This document shows, one piece after another, positions 27,145 through 33,487 of a stretch of DNA of 34,380 nucleotides. The stretch is taken from positions 1-34,380 of the forward strand of contig JBOHQB010000231.1 of the NCBI GenBank assembly GCA_050731995.1. The letters run 5' to 3'. The position numbers and the translations under genes were made by a program. Under the pieces are notes generated by a model that was not told the origin of the DNA, did not search any database, and worked only from the letters and a program-made list of their open reading frames with translations. Every line of letters begins with the position of its first letter. The first letter of the stretch is position 1. Origin of the DNA: Candidatus Rokuibacteriota bacterium (lineage in GTDB: Bacteria; Methylomirabilota; Methylomirabilia; Rokubacteriales; CSP1-6).

Positions 27145-27980
27145 CAGCTCCCGTCCCCGAAGAACGACGCGACGTCGCGCGCCGCGTCGCCGACCAGCAG
27201 CAGCACCTCGTCGACGCGCCCGAAGTCCACCGCCGGCGTGAGTTGCGCGTAGTGGAAGAGCGCCGAGCCGCGGTCGTCGATCGCGCGCACGCGGCCGACG
27301 GGAATGCCGCGCGGGAACAGGCCGCCCGCGCCCGAGGACACCACGAGGTCGCCGACCTGGATCCCCGCGCCGTCGCGCGCCATATACTTCAGCCGGATCG
27401 TGCCGCGCGGCTCGCCCTCCACGATGCCGGGCGTGCGTGTGCGGACGACGACGCCGCCGACCGTCGAGGCGGGATCCGTGAGCACCTGCACGATCGACAC
27501 GCCGAGGCGCACGTCGACGACGCGCCCGACGAGCCCGTCGGGCGCGATCACCGCCGAGAGCCGCGACACGCTGTCGCCGCGGCCGCGGTTGACGGTCAGC
27601 GAGCGGACCCAGCCGCCCCAGTCGCGCGCGATGATCTCACCGGAGAGCGTCGTGAGCGGCAGCGCCTCCTTGAGCTCGAGCAGCCGGCGGAGGCGGGCGT
27701 TCTCCTCCGCGGTCTCGTTGACGCGGAGCGCCTCCACGCGGAGCCGCCGGGCCTCTTCGCGCAGCCGCTGGTTCTCGACGCGGACGTTCTTCCAGTCCAC
27801 GTACGTCGCCCACGTTGCGACGGCTGCGCGGTGGGCGCCGGCCAGCACGGCCTGGACGGGCGCGGTGACGAGGGTGAGGGCATCGGCGGCGCCCGAGCCG
27901 TGGCCCCGCGTCTGGAGCGTCAGCAGCACGAAGCACACGCCGGCGACGGCGCCGAGCAGTACGACCGCACGAATCTTCAC
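27144..27980 (-). CDS. mreC: rod shape-determining protein MreC
   Basis: Trimmed from ORF 27144..28241. GTG 27980 has GGAG 7 nt upstream and gives a 278-aa protein. It has a TM anchor, a coiled coil (ENQRLREEARRLRVEALRVNETAEENARLRRLL) and a beta-rich C-terminal domain (VVSSGAGGLFPRGIPVG). Confidence 0.85.
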   Translation of the reverse strand: MKIRAVVLLGAVAGVCFVLLTLQTRGHGSGAADALTLVTAPVQAVLAGAHRAAVATWATYVDWKNVRVENQRLREEARRLRVEALRVNETAEENARLRRLLELKEALPLTTLSGEIIARDWGGWVRSLTVNRGRGDSVSRLSAVIAPDGLVGRVVDVRLGVSIVQVLTDPASTVGGVVVRTRTPGIVEGEPRGTIRLKYMARDGAGIQVGDLVVSSGAGGLFPRGIPVGRVRAIDDRGSALFHYAQLTPAVDFGRVDEVLLLVGDAARDVASFFGDGS

Positions 27981-28018
27981 GTTCGACTCCGAGACCGCGA
28001 CGCCCCGGCGCGAAACGA

Positions 28019-29071
<1,053 letters not shown>

Positions 29072-29654: not shown

Positions 29655-30707
29655 GTGATCGACGAGTTCGAGCTGTTCTTCGACAAGGGCGTCACCGACG
29701 GGCTGCCCGTCGTGCCCCCGACGCGCGAGCGGGTCGAGCGTATGCTGGCCGGCACCGCGCGTGACCGCGCGGAGCTGATCGGCGAGCTACCGCCGAACTA
29801 CGGACGCCTCACCGTCGAGAAGGCCGCGATCAACGCGGTCATGGCCGGATGCCGGCCCGAGTACCTGCCCGTCGTTCTCGCGGCGGCGGAGTGCGCGTGC
29901 GACCCCGACTTCAACCTGCACGGCATGGCCACCTCCACGCACTTCTCGGCGCCCCTCATCGTCGTCAACGGACCGATCCGCGCGCGCATCGGCCTCAACG
30001 CGTCCTTCGGCGTCTTCGGACCCGGCTACCGCGCCAACGCGACGATCGGGCGCGCGCTGCGTCTTCTGATGATCAACGTCGGAGGCGCCCGGCCCGGCGA
30101 GACGTCGATGTCCACCTTCGGCCATCCGGGCCGCTACACCTACTGCATCGCCGAGCACGAGGAGGCAAGCCCGTGGCCCCCGCTCCACGCGAGCCGCGGC
30201 TGCGACCCCTCGCACAGCGCCGTGACGCTCTTCGCCGGAGAGGCACCGCACGGCATCTCGGACCACGCGAGCCGCACGGCACGGGCGCTGGCGGGCTCGC
30301 TCGGCTGGACGATGGCCGGACTCTGGAACAGCAAGCACTTCCCGCTCTACTCGCACACCATGCTCGTGGTCGGGCCCGAGCACGCGCGCACCTTCGCCGA
30401 CGACGGGTGGTCGCGCGCGGACCTCGCGCGCTATCTCTGGGAGACGATCCGCGTGCCGTACCGGACGCTCGTGCCCGACGACCTGCACGGTGAGGGCACC
30501 AATCTGAGGTACACGAAGGCGCCCCCCGTCGCCGACGAGCCGATTCCGAAATTCCCCTCGCCGGACGAGATCCACATCGTCGTCGCCGGCGGCACCGCGG
30601 GCCGCTTCTCGGTCGCGATTCCCGGCTGGCTCGGCACGAGGAACGGCTCGCGTCCGATCACGCGCGTGATCGAGACGCGCCGAGATCCGGGCGCAAAAAT
30701 CGGTTGA
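29655..30707 (+). CDS. conserved hypothetical protein (350 aa), family not recognised
   Basis: GTG 29655 has GAGG ~8 nt upstream and TATAGT at 29626-29631. Codon bias is coherent and the sequence is non-repetitive ([68 protein letters not shown]). An intrinsic terminator follows. Confidence 0.7.
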
Positions 30708-30788
30708 CTTGCGCGCGCCCGCCGTGCGATCCTCCAAACAGTTCTGGTTCAACACGGAGTCGGTAGCGATTGACGAAATCGAAACGAA

Positions 30789-30825
30789 CGCCGCGCGGTC
30801 CCAGCTCGCGCGGCGTTTTTTCTTT
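30789..30825 (+). terminator. rho-independent terminator
   Basis: CGCCGCGCG (30789-30797), a 9-nt loop, CGCGCGGCG (30807-30815), then TTTTTTCTTT (30816-30825). It lies 82 nt after the stop of the 350-aa gene. Confidence 0.75.
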
Positions 30826-30906
30826 GCCTGCCAATCCCGGCAGGTGACCCCGCCATCGTGGCGGGAGCATGCAGGGGCTGAAGACCCCCAAGAGAGAGGT
30901 CGCGGG

Positions 30907-31107
30907 ATGGCAACAGGACAGGTGAAGTGGTTCAACGACGCGAAGGGCTACGGGTTCATCACGCAGGAGGGCGGGGAGGACGTGTTCGTCCACTACAGCG
31001 CCATTCAGGCCCAGGGCTTCAAGTCCCTGGCCGAAGGTGACAAGGTCGACTTCGAGGTCACCCGCGGTCCGAAGGGTCTTCAGGCAGCCAACGTCCGGAA
31101 AGCCTAG
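30907..31107 (+). CDS. cspA: cold-shock protein (CspA family)
   Basis: Trimmed from ORF 30709..31107. ATG 30907 (GAGAGG upstream) gives [34 protein letters not shown]... (66 aa), with RNP1 (KGYGFI) and RNP2 (VFVHY). Confidence 0.95.
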
Positions 31108-31120
31108 CCTCACGCATCGC

Positions 31121-31150
31121 GCGCCCGGGTCCGGCGACGGGCCCGGGCGC
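31121..31150 (+). terminator. GC-rich hairpin after cspA (possible attenuator/terminator, no U-tract)
   Basis: GCGCCCGGG (31121-31129) pairs with CCCGGGCGC (31142-31150). It is followed by TTCCAATAAC rather than a T-run. Confidence 0.35.
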
Positions 31151-31185
31151 TTCCAATAACCTCAGACCGAAAGGCTCACACACTG

Positions 31186-32358
31186 ATGGTTCGCTCATTC
31201 ACTGATCTTCCGCTCACTGAACCCATGCTCGCCGCGATCGCACGCGCCGGGTACGCGACGCCCACGCCCATCCAGGCCCAGGTCATCGGTCCGATCCTGG
31301 ATGGGCGCGACGTCATCGGCTGCGCCCAGACGGGCACCGGCAAGACCGCGGCGTTTGCGATTCCGACCATTGAACGCCTCGCCGGGGCGGGTGAACGCCT
31401 CGCCGGGGCGGGTGAACGCCTCGCCGGGGCGGGCTCACTCCTCACCGGGAGGGTTTCACCGCCCGCGGGCCCGCGCGCACTGGTGCTGGCGCCGACTCGC
31501 GAGCTGGCGCTCCAGATCGCGGAGACATTCGACACGCTCGGCCCGGCGCTCAGGACCGTCGTCCTGATCGGCGGTGAGTCGATGGGGCCTCAGGTGTCCG
31601 CCCTCGGCAAGCGCCCCGACGTCATCGTGGCCACGCCGGGGCGTCTCTTCGACCATCTCGAGCGCCGGACGACGAGCCTCGGGACGATCCGGCTCGTCAT
31701 TCTCGACGAGGCCGACCGGATGCTCGACATGGGCTTCGCGCCCCAGGTCGAGCGCATCCTTCGCGTGGTTCCGCTCGACCGGCAGACGCTCTGCTTCTCG
31801 GCGACGATGCCGAAAGAGGTCGAGGCCCTCGTCCGCCAGCATCTGGTCCGGCCGGTCCGGATCGATGCGGGCACGATCGCCCGGCCCGTCGCCAAGGTCA
31901 CGCAGGTGCTCTACCGGGCGCAGGTGCAGGACAAGACACCGCTCCTGCTGAGGCTCCTCGGCCAGGAGCGCGGCCAAACACTGGTCTTCACCCGCACCAA
32001 GCACCGCGCCGACCGCGTGGCGCGCGCCGTGCAAGCGGCGGGGCATCGCGTCACGCGTCTGCACGCCAACCGCTCGATGGCCCAACGCCGTGAGGCGCTC
32101 GACGGGTTCCGTGAGGGACGCTACCGGGTGCTCGTGGCCACCGACATCGCGGCGCGCGGCATCGACGTCCCGGATATCGCGCACATCGTGAACTTCGATC
32201 TGCCGCACACGCCGGAGGACTACATCCATCGCATTGGCCGCACCGCGCGCGCCGAGGCGAGCGGCACGGCGTCGAGCTTTGCGTCACCGGAGGAGCACGA
32301 TCAGCTCCGCCAGATCGAGCGCCATCTCGGACACGCCGTCCCGCAGCTGCAGGCGTAA
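31186..32358 (+). CDS. DEAD-box ATP-dependent RNA helicase (short, 390 aa)
   Basis: ATG 31186. Motifs present: Q motif (GYATPTPIQ), I (AQTGTGKT), Ia (PTRELA), Ib (TPGR), II (DEAD in ILDEADRM), III (SAT), V (ARGID) and VI (HRIGRTAR). Confidence 0.9.
   Translation: MVRSFTDLPLTEPMLAAIARAGYATPTPIQAQVIGPILDGRDVIGCAQTGTGKTAAFAIPTIERLAGAGERLAGAGERLAGAGSLLTGRVSPPAGPRALVLAPTRELALQIAETFDTLGPALRTVVLIGGESMGPQVSALGKRPDVIVATPGRLFDHLERRTTSLGTIRLVILDEADRMLDMGFAPQVERILRVVPLDRQTLCFSATMPKEVEALVRQHLVRPVRIDAGTIARPVAKVTQVLYRAQVQDKTPLLLRLLGQERGQTLVFTRTKHRADRVARAVQAAGHRVTRLHANRSMAQRREALDGFREGRYRVLVATDIAARGIDVPDIAHIVNFDLPHTPEDYIHRIGRTARAEASGTASSFASPEEHDQLRQIERHLGHAVPQLQA
31372..31434 (+). repeat. 21-bp x3 in-frame tandem repeat inside the helicase gene
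   Basis: GAACGCCTCGCCGGGGCGGGT occurs at 31372-31392 and 31393-31413, and GAACGCCTCGCCGGGGCGGGC at 31414-31434. Together they encode ERLAGAG x3 between helicase motifs I and Ia. Confidence 0.95.
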
Positions 32359-32372
32359 AAGGCGTCGACTGC

Positions 32373-32808
32373 TGGGGGAGTCCGAGGGGGGTCGCCCCCC
32401 TCGGCACAAATGAAAACCCCGACGATGGCTTGCGGCGCGTGATGCTGTCACTCGCCGTTGCGCCGCCCCGCTTGGTGAGGCGGGATCGTCGGGGTCGGTG
32501 GCGCCTGGACTCCCAGGCAATTCCACCCTGCGCTAGCGTGGACCCTGCCTAGGAGGCAACCACCTCACAGATCACCGTAGGAGTACACATCGGCTGGATC
32601 ACCTCCTGTTCTCGGCAAGGCCGCCACGCGGGCCCAGTTCCCACCCACCCAGAACCGGATGCCGACTCCCGGCCCGGGGCTCGGCCACGTCAGCCGCCGA
32701 CGGGATTGTCGGTGGGGACGCCCTGAGGAGCGCTGTTGTCGCTCCGGCCGATTTGCCCACATCCTACCGCAGCGGCCGGGCGCGCCAAAGAAAAAGTCGG
32801 GTGCGCGT
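32373..32808. ncRNA. candidate structured non-coding RNA region, unclassified, containing a 16S rRNA 3'-end look-alike
   Basis: The gap between convergent genes has no credible ORF. It contains several nested perfect 5-10 bp helices, listed in the findings. CGGCTGGATCACCTCCT (32591-32607) is identical to the 16S 3' terminus. Strand and boundaries are unknown. Confidence 0.3.
32382..32404. terminator. 10-bp perfect GC hairpin between convergent genes
   Basis: CCGAGGGGGG-TCG-CCCCCCTCGG lies 24 nt after the helicase stop. There is no U-tract on either strand, so terminator function is uncertain. Confidence 0.4.
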
Positions 32809-33129
32809 TCACTTGATGACGATGCGCTCGCGGTTCTTCTCCCACAGCACGCCGCCGACGCCCTCGACCTTGCGCAAGTCCTCCGCCTTCCGGAACGGGC
32901 CGTGCGCGTCACGGTACTCGACGATCCGCTCCGCGAGCTTGGGCCCGACCCCCTCGAGCGTCGTCAGCTCCTTCACGGACGCGCTGTTGATGTTGACCTT
33001 GTCGCGGGTCGCCGCCGAGGCGATCGGACCGGCGACGGCCCCGGCGGATGGGACCAGCGCGGCGGCCGCCGGCGCGGCATGCGAGACAACGCAGAGGAGC
33101 AGCACGAGCAACGAAACGAATGTGGTCAT
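32809..33129 (-). CDS. comEA: ComEA-like helix-hairpin-helix DNA-binding protein (secreted/periplasmic)
   Basis: Trimmed from ORF 32809..33729. ATG 33129 (AGGAGAG 7 nt upstream) gives MTTFVSLLVLLLCVVSHAAPAAA... (a signal peptide) followed by VNINSASVKELTTLEGVGPKLAERIVEYRDAHGPFRKAEDLRKVEGVG (tandem HhH). The protein is 106 aa. Confidence 0.8.
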   Translation of the reverse strand: MTTFVSLLVLLLCVVSHAAPAAAALVPSAGAVAGPIASAATRDKVNINSASVKELTTLEGVGPKLAERIVEYRDAHGPFRKAEDLRKVEGVGGVLWEKNRERIVIK

Positions 33130-33244
33130 CGACGCTCTCCTGTATTTTCCGGTGCACGGCACGCTCGAGCATTCGAGCGTCGCCATTGCACGTCCGGCGT
33201 GGAGGCGCGTCAATGTCCACTCTTTCAGACGCCGGCTGTATCCC

Positions 33245-33487
33245 TCAGGGACTCTTCTCGCGGCGCGCGGCCCGCAGGAGTCGCAGGCCGAGCTTCCGGA
33301 GCCCGGCCGGGCTCGCCAGTTCCTCGTAACGGGCGAGGGTGACCCGCTTACAGTACCGGCAGAGCAGCTCCACGCCCTCGTCGCTGAATCGCACGAGCTG
33401 CTTGGTGCAGGTGCACAACAGCCTCTCGAGCTCTCTCGGTGCCACGGTGCCGATCCCCCGGCGAAGAACACAAGAGCCCAGAGCCAC
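33245..33487 (-). CDS. possible small zinc-ribbon protein, Mu Com-like
   Basis: LLCTCTKQLVRFSDEGVELLCRYCKRVT aligns by eye with the Mu Com core CKNCNKLLFKADSFDHIEIRCPRCKRHI. GC3 is high through the ORF. The start is uncertain (GTG 33487 or GTG 33445). The first Cys pair is CxC rather than CxxC. Confidence 0.4.
   Translation of the reverse strand: MALGSCVLRRGIGTVAPRELERLLCTCTKQLVRFSDEGVELLCRYCKRVTLARYEELASPAGLRKLGLRLLRAARREKSP

Follow-up and report, generated by a model that had tools for sequence, protein, structure and literature searches.

Introduction

Ms_IGR-5 (Rfam RF02471) is a small RNA (sRNA) family listed as actinobacterial. It has been validated by RNA-seq in Streptomyces lividans (PMC8079986), forms a defined sRNA transcription unit in Streptomyces avermitilis (PMC8780764) and carries ribosome footprints in Mycobacterium abscessus and Mycobacterium smegmatis (PMC4974804); on this published evidence the short form exists as an RNA in the cell and is engaged by ribosomes. 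Our searches of the open-access literature found no text describing an open reading frame (ORF) or a function for Ms_IGR-5, and the M. smegmatis ribosome-profiling paper does not mention it. Here we describe a distant, 5'-extended relative of this RNA, found outside the Actinobacteria in a stretch of 34,380 nucleotides (nt) from a Candidatus Rokuibacteriota bacterium (contig JBOHQB010000231.1). This whole stretch is referred to as 'the window', and the RNA gene gives a concrete feature to a 450-nt gap, at 32359-32808, that had appeared empty.

Several other kinds of RNA invite comparison. Dual-function sRNAs (SgrS/SgrT, RNAIII/hld, SR1/SR1P) are stand-alone structured RNAs with a translated short ORF, the arrangement that we propose here. 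Their ORFs have 26-43 codons, encode functional peptides and lie largely apart from the base-pairing domain, whereas the ORF of the window's family has 12-15 codons and is itself the structural hub. With leader-peptide attenuators and rnTrpL the window's RNA shares a 12-15-codon ORF and a layout in which translation would compete with alternative helices ending in a terminator, and, as with rnTrpL, the released short RNA could act in trans. Unlike these systems, it has its own promoter, lacks a conserved downstream operon or regulatory codon run, and is tied to no pathway. 6C RNA, like other Gram-positive sRNAs, is a conserved structured actinobacterial sRNA whose C-rich loops could bind G-rich Shine-Dalgarno (SD) regions, and it is not known to have an ORF or an SD sequence. 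The loops of the window's RNA differ (CCUCC, CCACC, CUCACC), and 6C gave no Rfam match in the window or in a permissive search of 32250-32900.

We show that the gap is occupied by a single gene, independent and on the minus strand, that encodes a structured RNA of ~345 nt and runs from its own promoter to an intrinsic terminator, and we consider its identity as an RNA gene related to Ms_IGR-5 to be highly probable. The sRNA family listed as actinobacterial is one branch of a far wider family present in several phyla, and a conserved 12-15-codon ORF, of which the literature searched makes no mention, is built into its structural core. The best explanation overall, and in our judgement a probable one, is a minus-strand, Ms_IGR-5-related RNA gene that would act as a ribosome-operated switch.

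An independent RNA gene on the minus strand

The gap separates a DEAD-box helicase gene (31186-32358, plus strand) from a convergent gene for a ComEA-like HHH_3 protein (32809-33129, minus strand), and both flanking genes were confirmed. The initial annotation, made from the letters alone, had described a gap free of ORFs that carried seven complementary segment pairs, all of them exact, and a 17-mer, CGGCTGGATCACCTCCT (32591-32607, plus strand), which is 17/17 identical to the consensus 3' end of 16S ribosomal RNA (rRNA). The 17-mer is not a chance resemblance; it occurs once in the window when up to two mismatches are allowed, and in 0/100 dinucleotide shuffles. The sequence observation is real but its strand and meaning are inverted, the apparent copy of the 16S 3' end being the antisense image of the SD sequence of an RNA encoded on the other strand. 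The gene comprises the following features.

Whole predicted RNA: 32406..32754, minus strand, ~345 nt
Promoter: 32761..32788, minus strand, with -10 element TAGGAT (32766..32761), -35-like TTGGCG (32788..32783) and a T-rich stretch upstream
Extended SD sequence: 32591..32607, minus strand, AGGAGGUGAUCCAGCCG, the reverse complement of the 17-mer
Tiny ORF: 32549..32590, minus strand, AUG UGU ACU CCU ACG GUG AUC UGU GAG GUG GUU GCC UCC UAG
Core UGUGAGGUGG: 32560..32569, minus strand, the codons Cys-Glu-Val and one G
Terminator: 32408..32496, minus strand, outer stem GACCCCGACGAU (32496..32485) with AUCGUCGGGGUU (32426..32415), then UUUUCAUUU
Inner terminator hairpin 1: 32484..32467, minus strand, CCCGC and GCGGG around the loop CUCACCAA
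Inner terminator hairpin 2: 32466..32432, minus strand, GCGGCGC...GCGCCGC

Among 13 close relatives and 81 diverse relatives of the same long type (alignment A1, pairwise identity at most 93%), the stretch of conserved sequence reaches from downstream of the -10 element as far as the U tract; the 5' end of the RNA (~32754) is predicted from the former and the 3' end (~32408) from the latter. A TAnnnT hexamer occupies the same alignment position in at least 90% of the 81 relatives, and in Rokubacteria conservation starts at the -10 element irrespective of the upstream gene. A simple sigma-70 promoter scan of 32200-33300 found no match and the -35 element is weak; hence the promoter assignment stands on conservation and position. 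A simple terminator scan of the same interval likewise found no match, because the terminator loop is long. Near the RNA 3' end, after several hairpins, CCCCGACGAU...AUCGUCGGGG form an extended stem on the minus strand, and UUUUCAUUU comes next. The outer stem is paired in 96.1% of alignment cells and 9/11 of its pairs have changed on both sides, 6/7 pairs of the second inner hairpin covary, and the UCACC loop inside the terminator is at least 90% conserved. Three of the helices listed in the initial annotation (CCCCGACGAT/ATCGTCGGGG, GCGGCGC/GCGCCGC and CCCGC/GCGGG) are thus backed by compensatory changes.

The minus-strand fold has a predicted energy of -179.3 kcal/mol (z -3.26), and 0/100 shuffles were as stable; the plus-strand fold, at -167.1 kcal/mol (z -2.15), is 12 kcal/mol worse. 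The GC content of the window is 71%. In the 65-pair structure described below, G-U pairs make up 8.8% of paired cells, and the share of paired cells drops from 93.2% for the minus strand to 86.0% for its complement, an asymmetry in G-U pairing that points to the minus strand.

No Rfam family matches at its gathering score anywhere in the window, and ARAGORN found no tRNA or transfer-messenger RNA (tmRNA) there; a tmRNA was found by neither ARAGORN nor Rfam, and the ORF described here has an SD sequence and a start codon, both of which the tag frame of a tmRNA lacks. The 5' leader does not register as a riboswitch, no aptamer model matching at E<=10 over 32250-32900. The Rfam search suggested by the initial annotation yielded nothing at gathering score, although a permissive search of 32250-32900 returned a match to RF02471 on the minus strand. 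Of the three interpretations that had been offered for the gap, only an unclassified structured RNA survives, in keeping with the absence of an Rfam family at gathering score and with covariation in the 81 relatives.

Relatives of Ms_IGR-5 in several phyla

The RF02471 match spans 32616..32409 on the minus strand and the entire model (positions 1-184/184), with 23.1 bits and E=0.0035 after correction for 4227 families. For comparison, 10/10 actinobacterial loci tested, which show the same SD-core pattern, scored 58-185 bits on RF02471, and in five long-type loci no Rfam family matched the element at gathering score. After the SD sequence, the Rfam consensus of RF02471 reads UUG AUU GAU UUA UGG ACA UGU GAG GUG GCU GCC CGC UAG.

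Relatives were collected in two scans. Species-representative genomes, searched with the pattern AGGAGGTGNTCC-N15-45-TGTGAGGTGG, gave at least 119 loci; metagenomes, searched with the SD sequence and CCAGGNNCCACYG 70-100 nt downstream as anchors and with the ORF left free, gave at least 120 further loci (84 unique sequences). The element is present in 237 of the at least 239 loci collected, L011 and L021 among the 119 genome loci being chance matches, and the SD-core pattern found no match in viral contigs. The element loci have in common the SD sequence, a start codon in frame with the core UGUGAGGUGG, this core itself, and a stop exactly six codons past the Cys codon. Actinobacteria listed from the genome scan include Mycobacterium, Streptomyces, Kitasatospora, Pseudonocardia, Brachybacterium and others; the other hosts listed are Rokubacteria/Methylomirabilota, Binatia, Thermodesulfobacteriota, Desulfuromonadales, Nitrospiria and Acidobacteriota. 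The phyla represented among the listed loci are Actinobacteria, Rokubacteria/Methylomirabilota, Binatia, Desulfobacterota, Nitrospirota and Acidobacteriota. Among the loci listed, the closest matches to the window in element and synteny are metagenome-assembled genomes (MAGs) of Rokubacteria/Methylomirabilota.

Taxon labels of MAGs can be wrong. One MAG labelled Gammaproteobacteria (L058) carries a mycobacterial-type element (LVDLWTCEVAAS) together with mycobacterial neighbour genes, which is likely to reflect binning contamination. In a Desulfuromonadales MAG (L060:3005-3462) an insertion of ~170 nt separates the stop hairpin of the element from its GGGAG hairpin.

The window's RNA resembles Ms_IGR-5 in the order of its parts: an SD sequence of the form AGGAGGUG(A/G)UCC, a start, an ORF of 12-15 codons with UGUGAGGUGG and a stop three codons past C-E-V (in the window AGGAGGUGAUCC, AUG, 13 codons and UAG), then hairpins, (N)CCACC and a terminator. 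It also has the long-range helix GGUGG(N)/(N)CCACC before the terminator stem, a CACAG motif and an independent promoter. It differs in its 5' part. Ms_IGR-5 has a short 5' end of ~13 nt before the SD sequence; the window and 80 relatives have instead a covarying leader of ~150 nt, which is absent from actinobacterial and acidobacterial copies. The actinobacterial copies have a promoter, TTGtcg-N17-TACGGT, immediately upstream of an RNA whose first bases are ACACAGG, and the acidobacterial promoter is similarly placed; CACAG stands at the 5' end in actinobacterial RNAs but in a hairpin loop here. The long-range helix has 6 bp here and 9-10 bp in actinobacteria, and the host here is, to judge from its nearest relatives, of Rokubacteria/Methylomirabilota rather than Actinobacteria.

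The Rfam entry for RF02471 (type "Gene; sRNA") is silent on the 12-codon ORF visible in its own consensus, and its structure line omits the long-range helix GGUGGCNNNN/NNNNGYCACC of actinobacterial loci (e.g. L008:3298-3480, L010:848-1029). Both the model and the structure line need revision.

A tiny reading frame conserved as a frame

The SD sequence AGGAGGUGAUCCAGCCG can base-pair along its whole length with consensus 16S rRNA, its complement being the 17 nt that directly precede the terminal UUUCU. Directly 3' of it, an AUG opens a frame of 13 codons (32590..32549) with the predicted product MCTPTVICEVVAS, and this frame is kept as an ORF in relatives, so that the gap is not free of ORFs as first supposed. 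In 167/170 unique elements a start codon at SD spacing is in frame and open to the core, against 6 and 24 for the other two frames, and in 170/170 the stop falls exactly six codons past the Cys codon. The SD-to-core distance in the same elements varies from 34 to 43 nt and multiples of three are not favoured; an in-frame start retained over a variable distance indicates that the reading frame is conserved as a reading frame. All 117 listed genome loci and the window have ATG, GTG or TTG 7-13 nt past AGGAGG and an ORF of 12-15 codons, although neither start nor ORF length nor stop position was demanded by the genome search pattern.

The core UGUGAGGUGG is nearly invariant in the 84 unique metagenome sequences, in which the ORF was unconstrained; two sequences have UGC, one has GUA, a divergent copy has UCG, and no other departures occur. 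Bases 13-17 of the SD sequence (AGCCG) were not demanded by the genome pattern, yet they occur in most Rokubacteria loci, L073 having AGUCG. At the one fixed stop position UAG (106), UGA (10) and UAA (4) interchange among the matches listed. We consider it quite likely that the ORF is translated. Two other frames were set aside: an upstream in-frame GTG at 32644 (a 31-aa ORF), whose frame is broken by single-base indels in relatives, and an "AUG-UGA" start-stop in the -1 frame, which is inconsistent between lineages.

UAG terminates 106/120 of the tiny ORFs (88%), against 26% UAG and 63% UGA in roughly called neighbour genes. The excess is partly accounted for by the stop hairpin, in which the final G of UAG forms a base pair; any link to release factor 1 (RF1) is speculation.

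Outside the paired segments the peptide varies in both sequence and length (LIASW, LIDLW, MINHR, MCTPTVI, MSSGSSKP). Actinobacteria keep (U/C/A/G)GG-ACN, giving W, R or G followed by T, and in the long type the Ile position may be I, F, L, T, S or V while the GGUGA nucleotides are kept. Which codons are used depends on the pairing of the RNA, and what counts is therefore probably less the peptide than translation as such. We infer selection on the fold, on the ribosome-binding site and on an open frame with a defined stop, and apparently not on the peptide.

Covariation in the long-type RNA

RNAalifold predicted 49 pairs on alignment A1, of which 30 show compensatory changes. The structure put to the test was assembled by hand and has 65 pairs. 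Its 93.2% of paired cells compare with 85.5% in shuffles; 43 pairs have changed on both sides against 25.2 in shuffles, a count that 0/500 shuffles reached, and cells with double-sided changes number 454 against 137. When partners were slid by 1-3 columns as a control, 32-49% of cells were paired. Beside the terminator, the structure has the following parts.

5' three-way junction: 32681..32751, minus strand, made up of P1, P2 and P3
P1: UCGGCC (32751..32746) with GGCCGA (32686..32681), minus strand, 95.4% paired, compensatory at 5/6 pairs
P2: GGAGC (32745..32741) with GCUCC (32731..32727), minus strand, 91.9% paired, compensatory at 5/5 pairs
P2 apical loop: 32733..32737, minus strand, AACAG in the window and CACAG in most relatives, with the proposed partner CUGUG (32570..32566)
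P3: ACCG (32713..32710) with CGGC (32699..32696), minus strand, 95.6% paired, compensatory at 4/4 pairs
Second leader sub-domain: 32613..32664, minus strand, CGGCA (32664..32660) with UGCCG (32617..32613), 5 nt upstream of the SD sequence
Stop-codon hairpin: 32546..32558, minus strand, UGCC[UCCUA]GGCA, with the G of UAG paired and the anti-SD-like CCUCC held in the loop
Hairpin GCCUGG-GAGU-CCAGGC: 32503..32518, minus strand, exact in the window

The helix of the second leader sub-domain is 96-99% paired and one of its pairs changes from A-U to G-C in 31 sequences. In the stop hairpin 3/4 pairs are compensatory, one of them in 33/81 sequences (UGCC/GGCA, GGCC/GGCC, GACC/GGUC). The plus-strand AGGAGG at 32551-32556, taken at first for an SD-like site, reads CCUCCU in the RNA, where it is anti-SD-like and forms the last part of the ORF.

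Most of the helices in the initial annotation are supported by covariation in relatives, and the remainder fare variously. GGTGG/CCACC is exact in the window but not universal, with 86.8% of cells paired and 20-26/81 sequences unpaired at two positions; CCTGG/CCAGG is also exact, but only 83.7% of cells are paired (MAFFT alignment) and a subgroup has a different hairpin. The pairing of GGGAGTCC (32376-32383) with GGACTCCC (32507-32514), suggested to close a larger domain, runs past the terminator into unconserved sequence and is unsupported. A kissing interaction between the CCUCC and GGGAG loops was flagged in the covariation scan, but we do not claim it, since its positions partly coincide with a stem and fall where the alignment is uncertain. 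A start-codon hairpin in actinobacterial copies (UCCNN/NNGGA) was dropped because its support is modest: the extra pairs number 1.27, and shuffling the partners gives 0.91 +/- 0.10.

The reading frame as structural hub

Two interactions, the second of them proposed, converge on the conserved codons. The first is a long-range helix between GGUGGU (32564..32559, within the Glu-Val-Val codons) and (A/G)CCACC directly before the terminator (32502..32497, GCCACC in the window), which is 99% paired in the 81 long-type sequences. Its actinobacterial counterpart, GGUGGCNNNN/NNNNGYCACC, has 9-10 bp and is 10/10 complementary in 55/90 unique sequences against 5.5% of shuffles, with the compensatory sets UGC/GCA, UAC/GUA, UCG/CGA and CGC/GCG.

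The second interaction involves the added leader, one loop of which, (C)ACAG at the apex of P2, can pair with CUGUG at the Cys codon. This pairing is possible at four positions in 75-79/81 sequences. In both UGU->UGC variants (L175, L195) a G replaces A at the facing P2-loop position, where G is found in only 6/76 sequences having A or G (Fisher's exact p ~0.007, calculated by hand), and in L171 CACGA faces UUGUG. Actinobacterial RNAs have the same CACAG motif at their 5' end. In acidobacterial copies without CACAG, the whole of UGUGAGGUGGCC pairs with one downstream strand, e.g. GGCCGCCUCACA in L111.

Two highly conserved loops are anti-SD-like: CUCACCA inside the terminator (32473-32479, minus strand) and CCUCCUA in the stop hairpin (32550-32556, minus strand). 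CUCACC is also complementary to GGUGAG/GGUGA inside the ORF, and all the partners are invariant.

A possible ribosome-operated switch and its alternatives

In the mechanism that we propose, ribosomes would load on the strong SD sequence and translate the tiny ORF. Because the hub is made of codons of this frame, a ribosome could translate them only by pulling the hub apart, and folding and translation would exclude each other. Passage of the ribosome would open the fold and make the RNA a ribosome-operated conformational switch, which we regard as the most economical model. Opening would free the C-rich anti-SD-like loops (CCUCC, CCACC, CUCACC) or alter the stability of the RNA; alternatively, the open state may retain a 30S subunit through the internal SD-like GAGGUGG. 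The peptide would probably be a by-product. Taken on its own, the step in which translation operates a switch is a tentative proposal, possible rather than probable. Were translation indeed to drive it, the family would provide a widespread case of a free-standing RNA that has its folding governed by passing ribosomes. Wider still, and rather doubtful, is the conjecture that throughout an Ms_IGR-5 superfamily of at least six phyla the ribosome is the effector, that, drawn in by a near-maximal SD sequence, it toggles the RNA between closed and open states by translating the 12-15 codons that make up a pseudoknotted hub, that the open state acts on mRNAs or ribosomes or marks the RNA for decay, and that in some phyla the 150-nt leader is a gating sensor.

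A number of observations weigh against this account. For the host organism and its phylum the gene model is a prediction from sequence. The RF02471 score of 23.1 bits is below the gathering score of 45, so that membership of the Rfam family does not follow from score, and 0/7 non-actinobacterial loci reach that threshold. Both scans demanded the extended SD sequence, whose conservation is therefore partly a matter of sampling, and its positions are lower-case in the Rfam consensus. The pairing of the P2 loop with the Cys codon hangs on three informative sequences, and in the GUA variant, L185, the long-range helix is disrupted and no change on the partner strand makes up for it. A rival hairpin between AGGAGG and CCUCCU at the ORF end is 96.6% paired, nearly invariant, and forms the minimum-energy fold of the window's RNA; as this hairpin and the long-range helix are both near-invariant in the long type, covariation cannot choose between them, and the long-range-helix fold and the SD-sequestering fold may alternate.

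The alternative that survives best, though we think it unlikely, is a micropeptide gene whose product is a peptide of 12-15 residues ending in C-E-V-(A/V)-x-x, with RNA structure serving to tune synthesis and message stability. The frame is indeed strongly conserved as an ORF, the three single-base variants in the Cys and Val codons (UGC twice, GUA once) are synonymous, the very strong SD sequence suggests high output, and follow-up work on rnTrpL reportedly describes a functional leader peptide of 14 residues. Yet the residues that are conserved are those encoded by paired nucleotides, each of the two UGC changes is accompanied by a matching change in the P2 loop, and peptide positions outside the paired segments vary freely. 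One relative has Ser in place of Cys, and there is no conserved partner or modifying gene nearby.

Less probable again is a purely non-coding structured sRNA that is never translated, in which the SD-, start- and stop-like triplets are structural by-products. Rfam lists the family as an sRNA, every conserved codon lies inside helices, and the SD sequence can be sequestered by CCUCCU, as in the minimum-energy fold. Against these points, the start keeps its frame over an SD-core distance of 34-43 nt (167/170 against 6 and 24), three different stop codons interchange at one fixed position, and Ms_IGR-5 carries ribosome footprints in two mycobacteria (PMC4974804).

We give still less credence to a trap for ribosomes or 30S subunits, in which the extended SD sequence and internal SD-like sites (GGUGAUC, GAGGUGG) would bind the 16S tail and so titrate or park ribosomes. 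The complementarity to that tail extends over 12-17 nt, and two more SD-like segments lie in the ORF, GAGGUG standing 6 nt before the last sense codon, which is a usual SD-start spacing. Moreover, intramolecular partners of the SD extension differ by type, leaving the 16S tail as the only partner common to all. A pure trap, however, needs no conserved frame or stop, and the conservation of the SD extension owes something to sampling.

A leader-peptide attenuator acting in cis on a downstream gene is scarcely credible: the layout of short ORF, alternative helices and terminator is similar, and in a few actinobacterial loci the terminator is followed by a gene on the same strand, but the next gene, the helicase in the window, is convergent here and in most loci, downstream genes are unrelated between lineages, and a reading of the sequence found no segment complementary to the 5' half of the terminator and hence no anti-terminator pairing. 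Equally negligible are the two remaining ideas of the initial annotation, a relic of an rRNA operon edge and a plus-strand mimic of the anti-SD, since, for all the 17/17 identity on that strand, the window has no rRNA or tRNA genes and no SSU_rRNA match at gathering score, or at E<=10 over 32250-32900, of the kind that helices 44-45 and the GUCGUAACAAGGUA block would give, the 17-mer is kept across several phyla as an SD sequence before an opposite-strand start codon and ORF, and it is the minus strand that carries the -10 element, the U-tract terminator, the ORF and the Rfam match and that the G-U pairs favour; a false lead is thereby removed.

Genomic neighbourhood

Mycobacterial copies of the element lie between an Rv0812-like aminotransferase gene and a convergent Rv0813c-like gene, Pseudonocardia copies follow purK-purE, and Rokubacteria copies follow the ComEA-like gene and face cspA, a DEAD-box helicase gene and a c15-family gene. 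As neighbour genes differ between phyla, synteny was dropped as a clue to function.

In the window, 29658-32358 is taken up by three co-oriented plus-strand genes: one of the c15 family at 29658-30671, one for a CspA-like cold-shock protein at 30778-31101, and the DEAD-box helicase gene at 31186-32358. This row resembles a cold-shock-type RNA-chaperone cluster, converges on the RNA gene and recurs in other Rokubacteria loci. Further away, the minus strand at 27198-29050 encodes MreB (28022-29050; Pfam MreB_Mbl, E=1e-152) and then an MreC-like protein, an ordinary cell-shape operon.

Between the terminator and the stop codon of the helicase gene lies a perfect, GC-rich palindrome, CCGAGGGGGG-TCG-CCCCCCTCGG (32382-32404). 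The initial annotation had counted it among the helices of the gap; it is indeed exact but is located outside the conserved RNA. An HDV_ribozyme match lying over it (32359-32419, plus strand; 17.9 bits, E=4.7) was regarded as noise. The window contains a single copy of the palindrome, which lacks a U tract on both strands. Near-identical GAGGGGGGCGACCCCCCTC hairpins stand just downstream of the element in three Rokubacteria loci (L033, L077, L220), and the palindrome could be a repetitive extragenic palindromic (REP)-like element or a bidirectional terminator.

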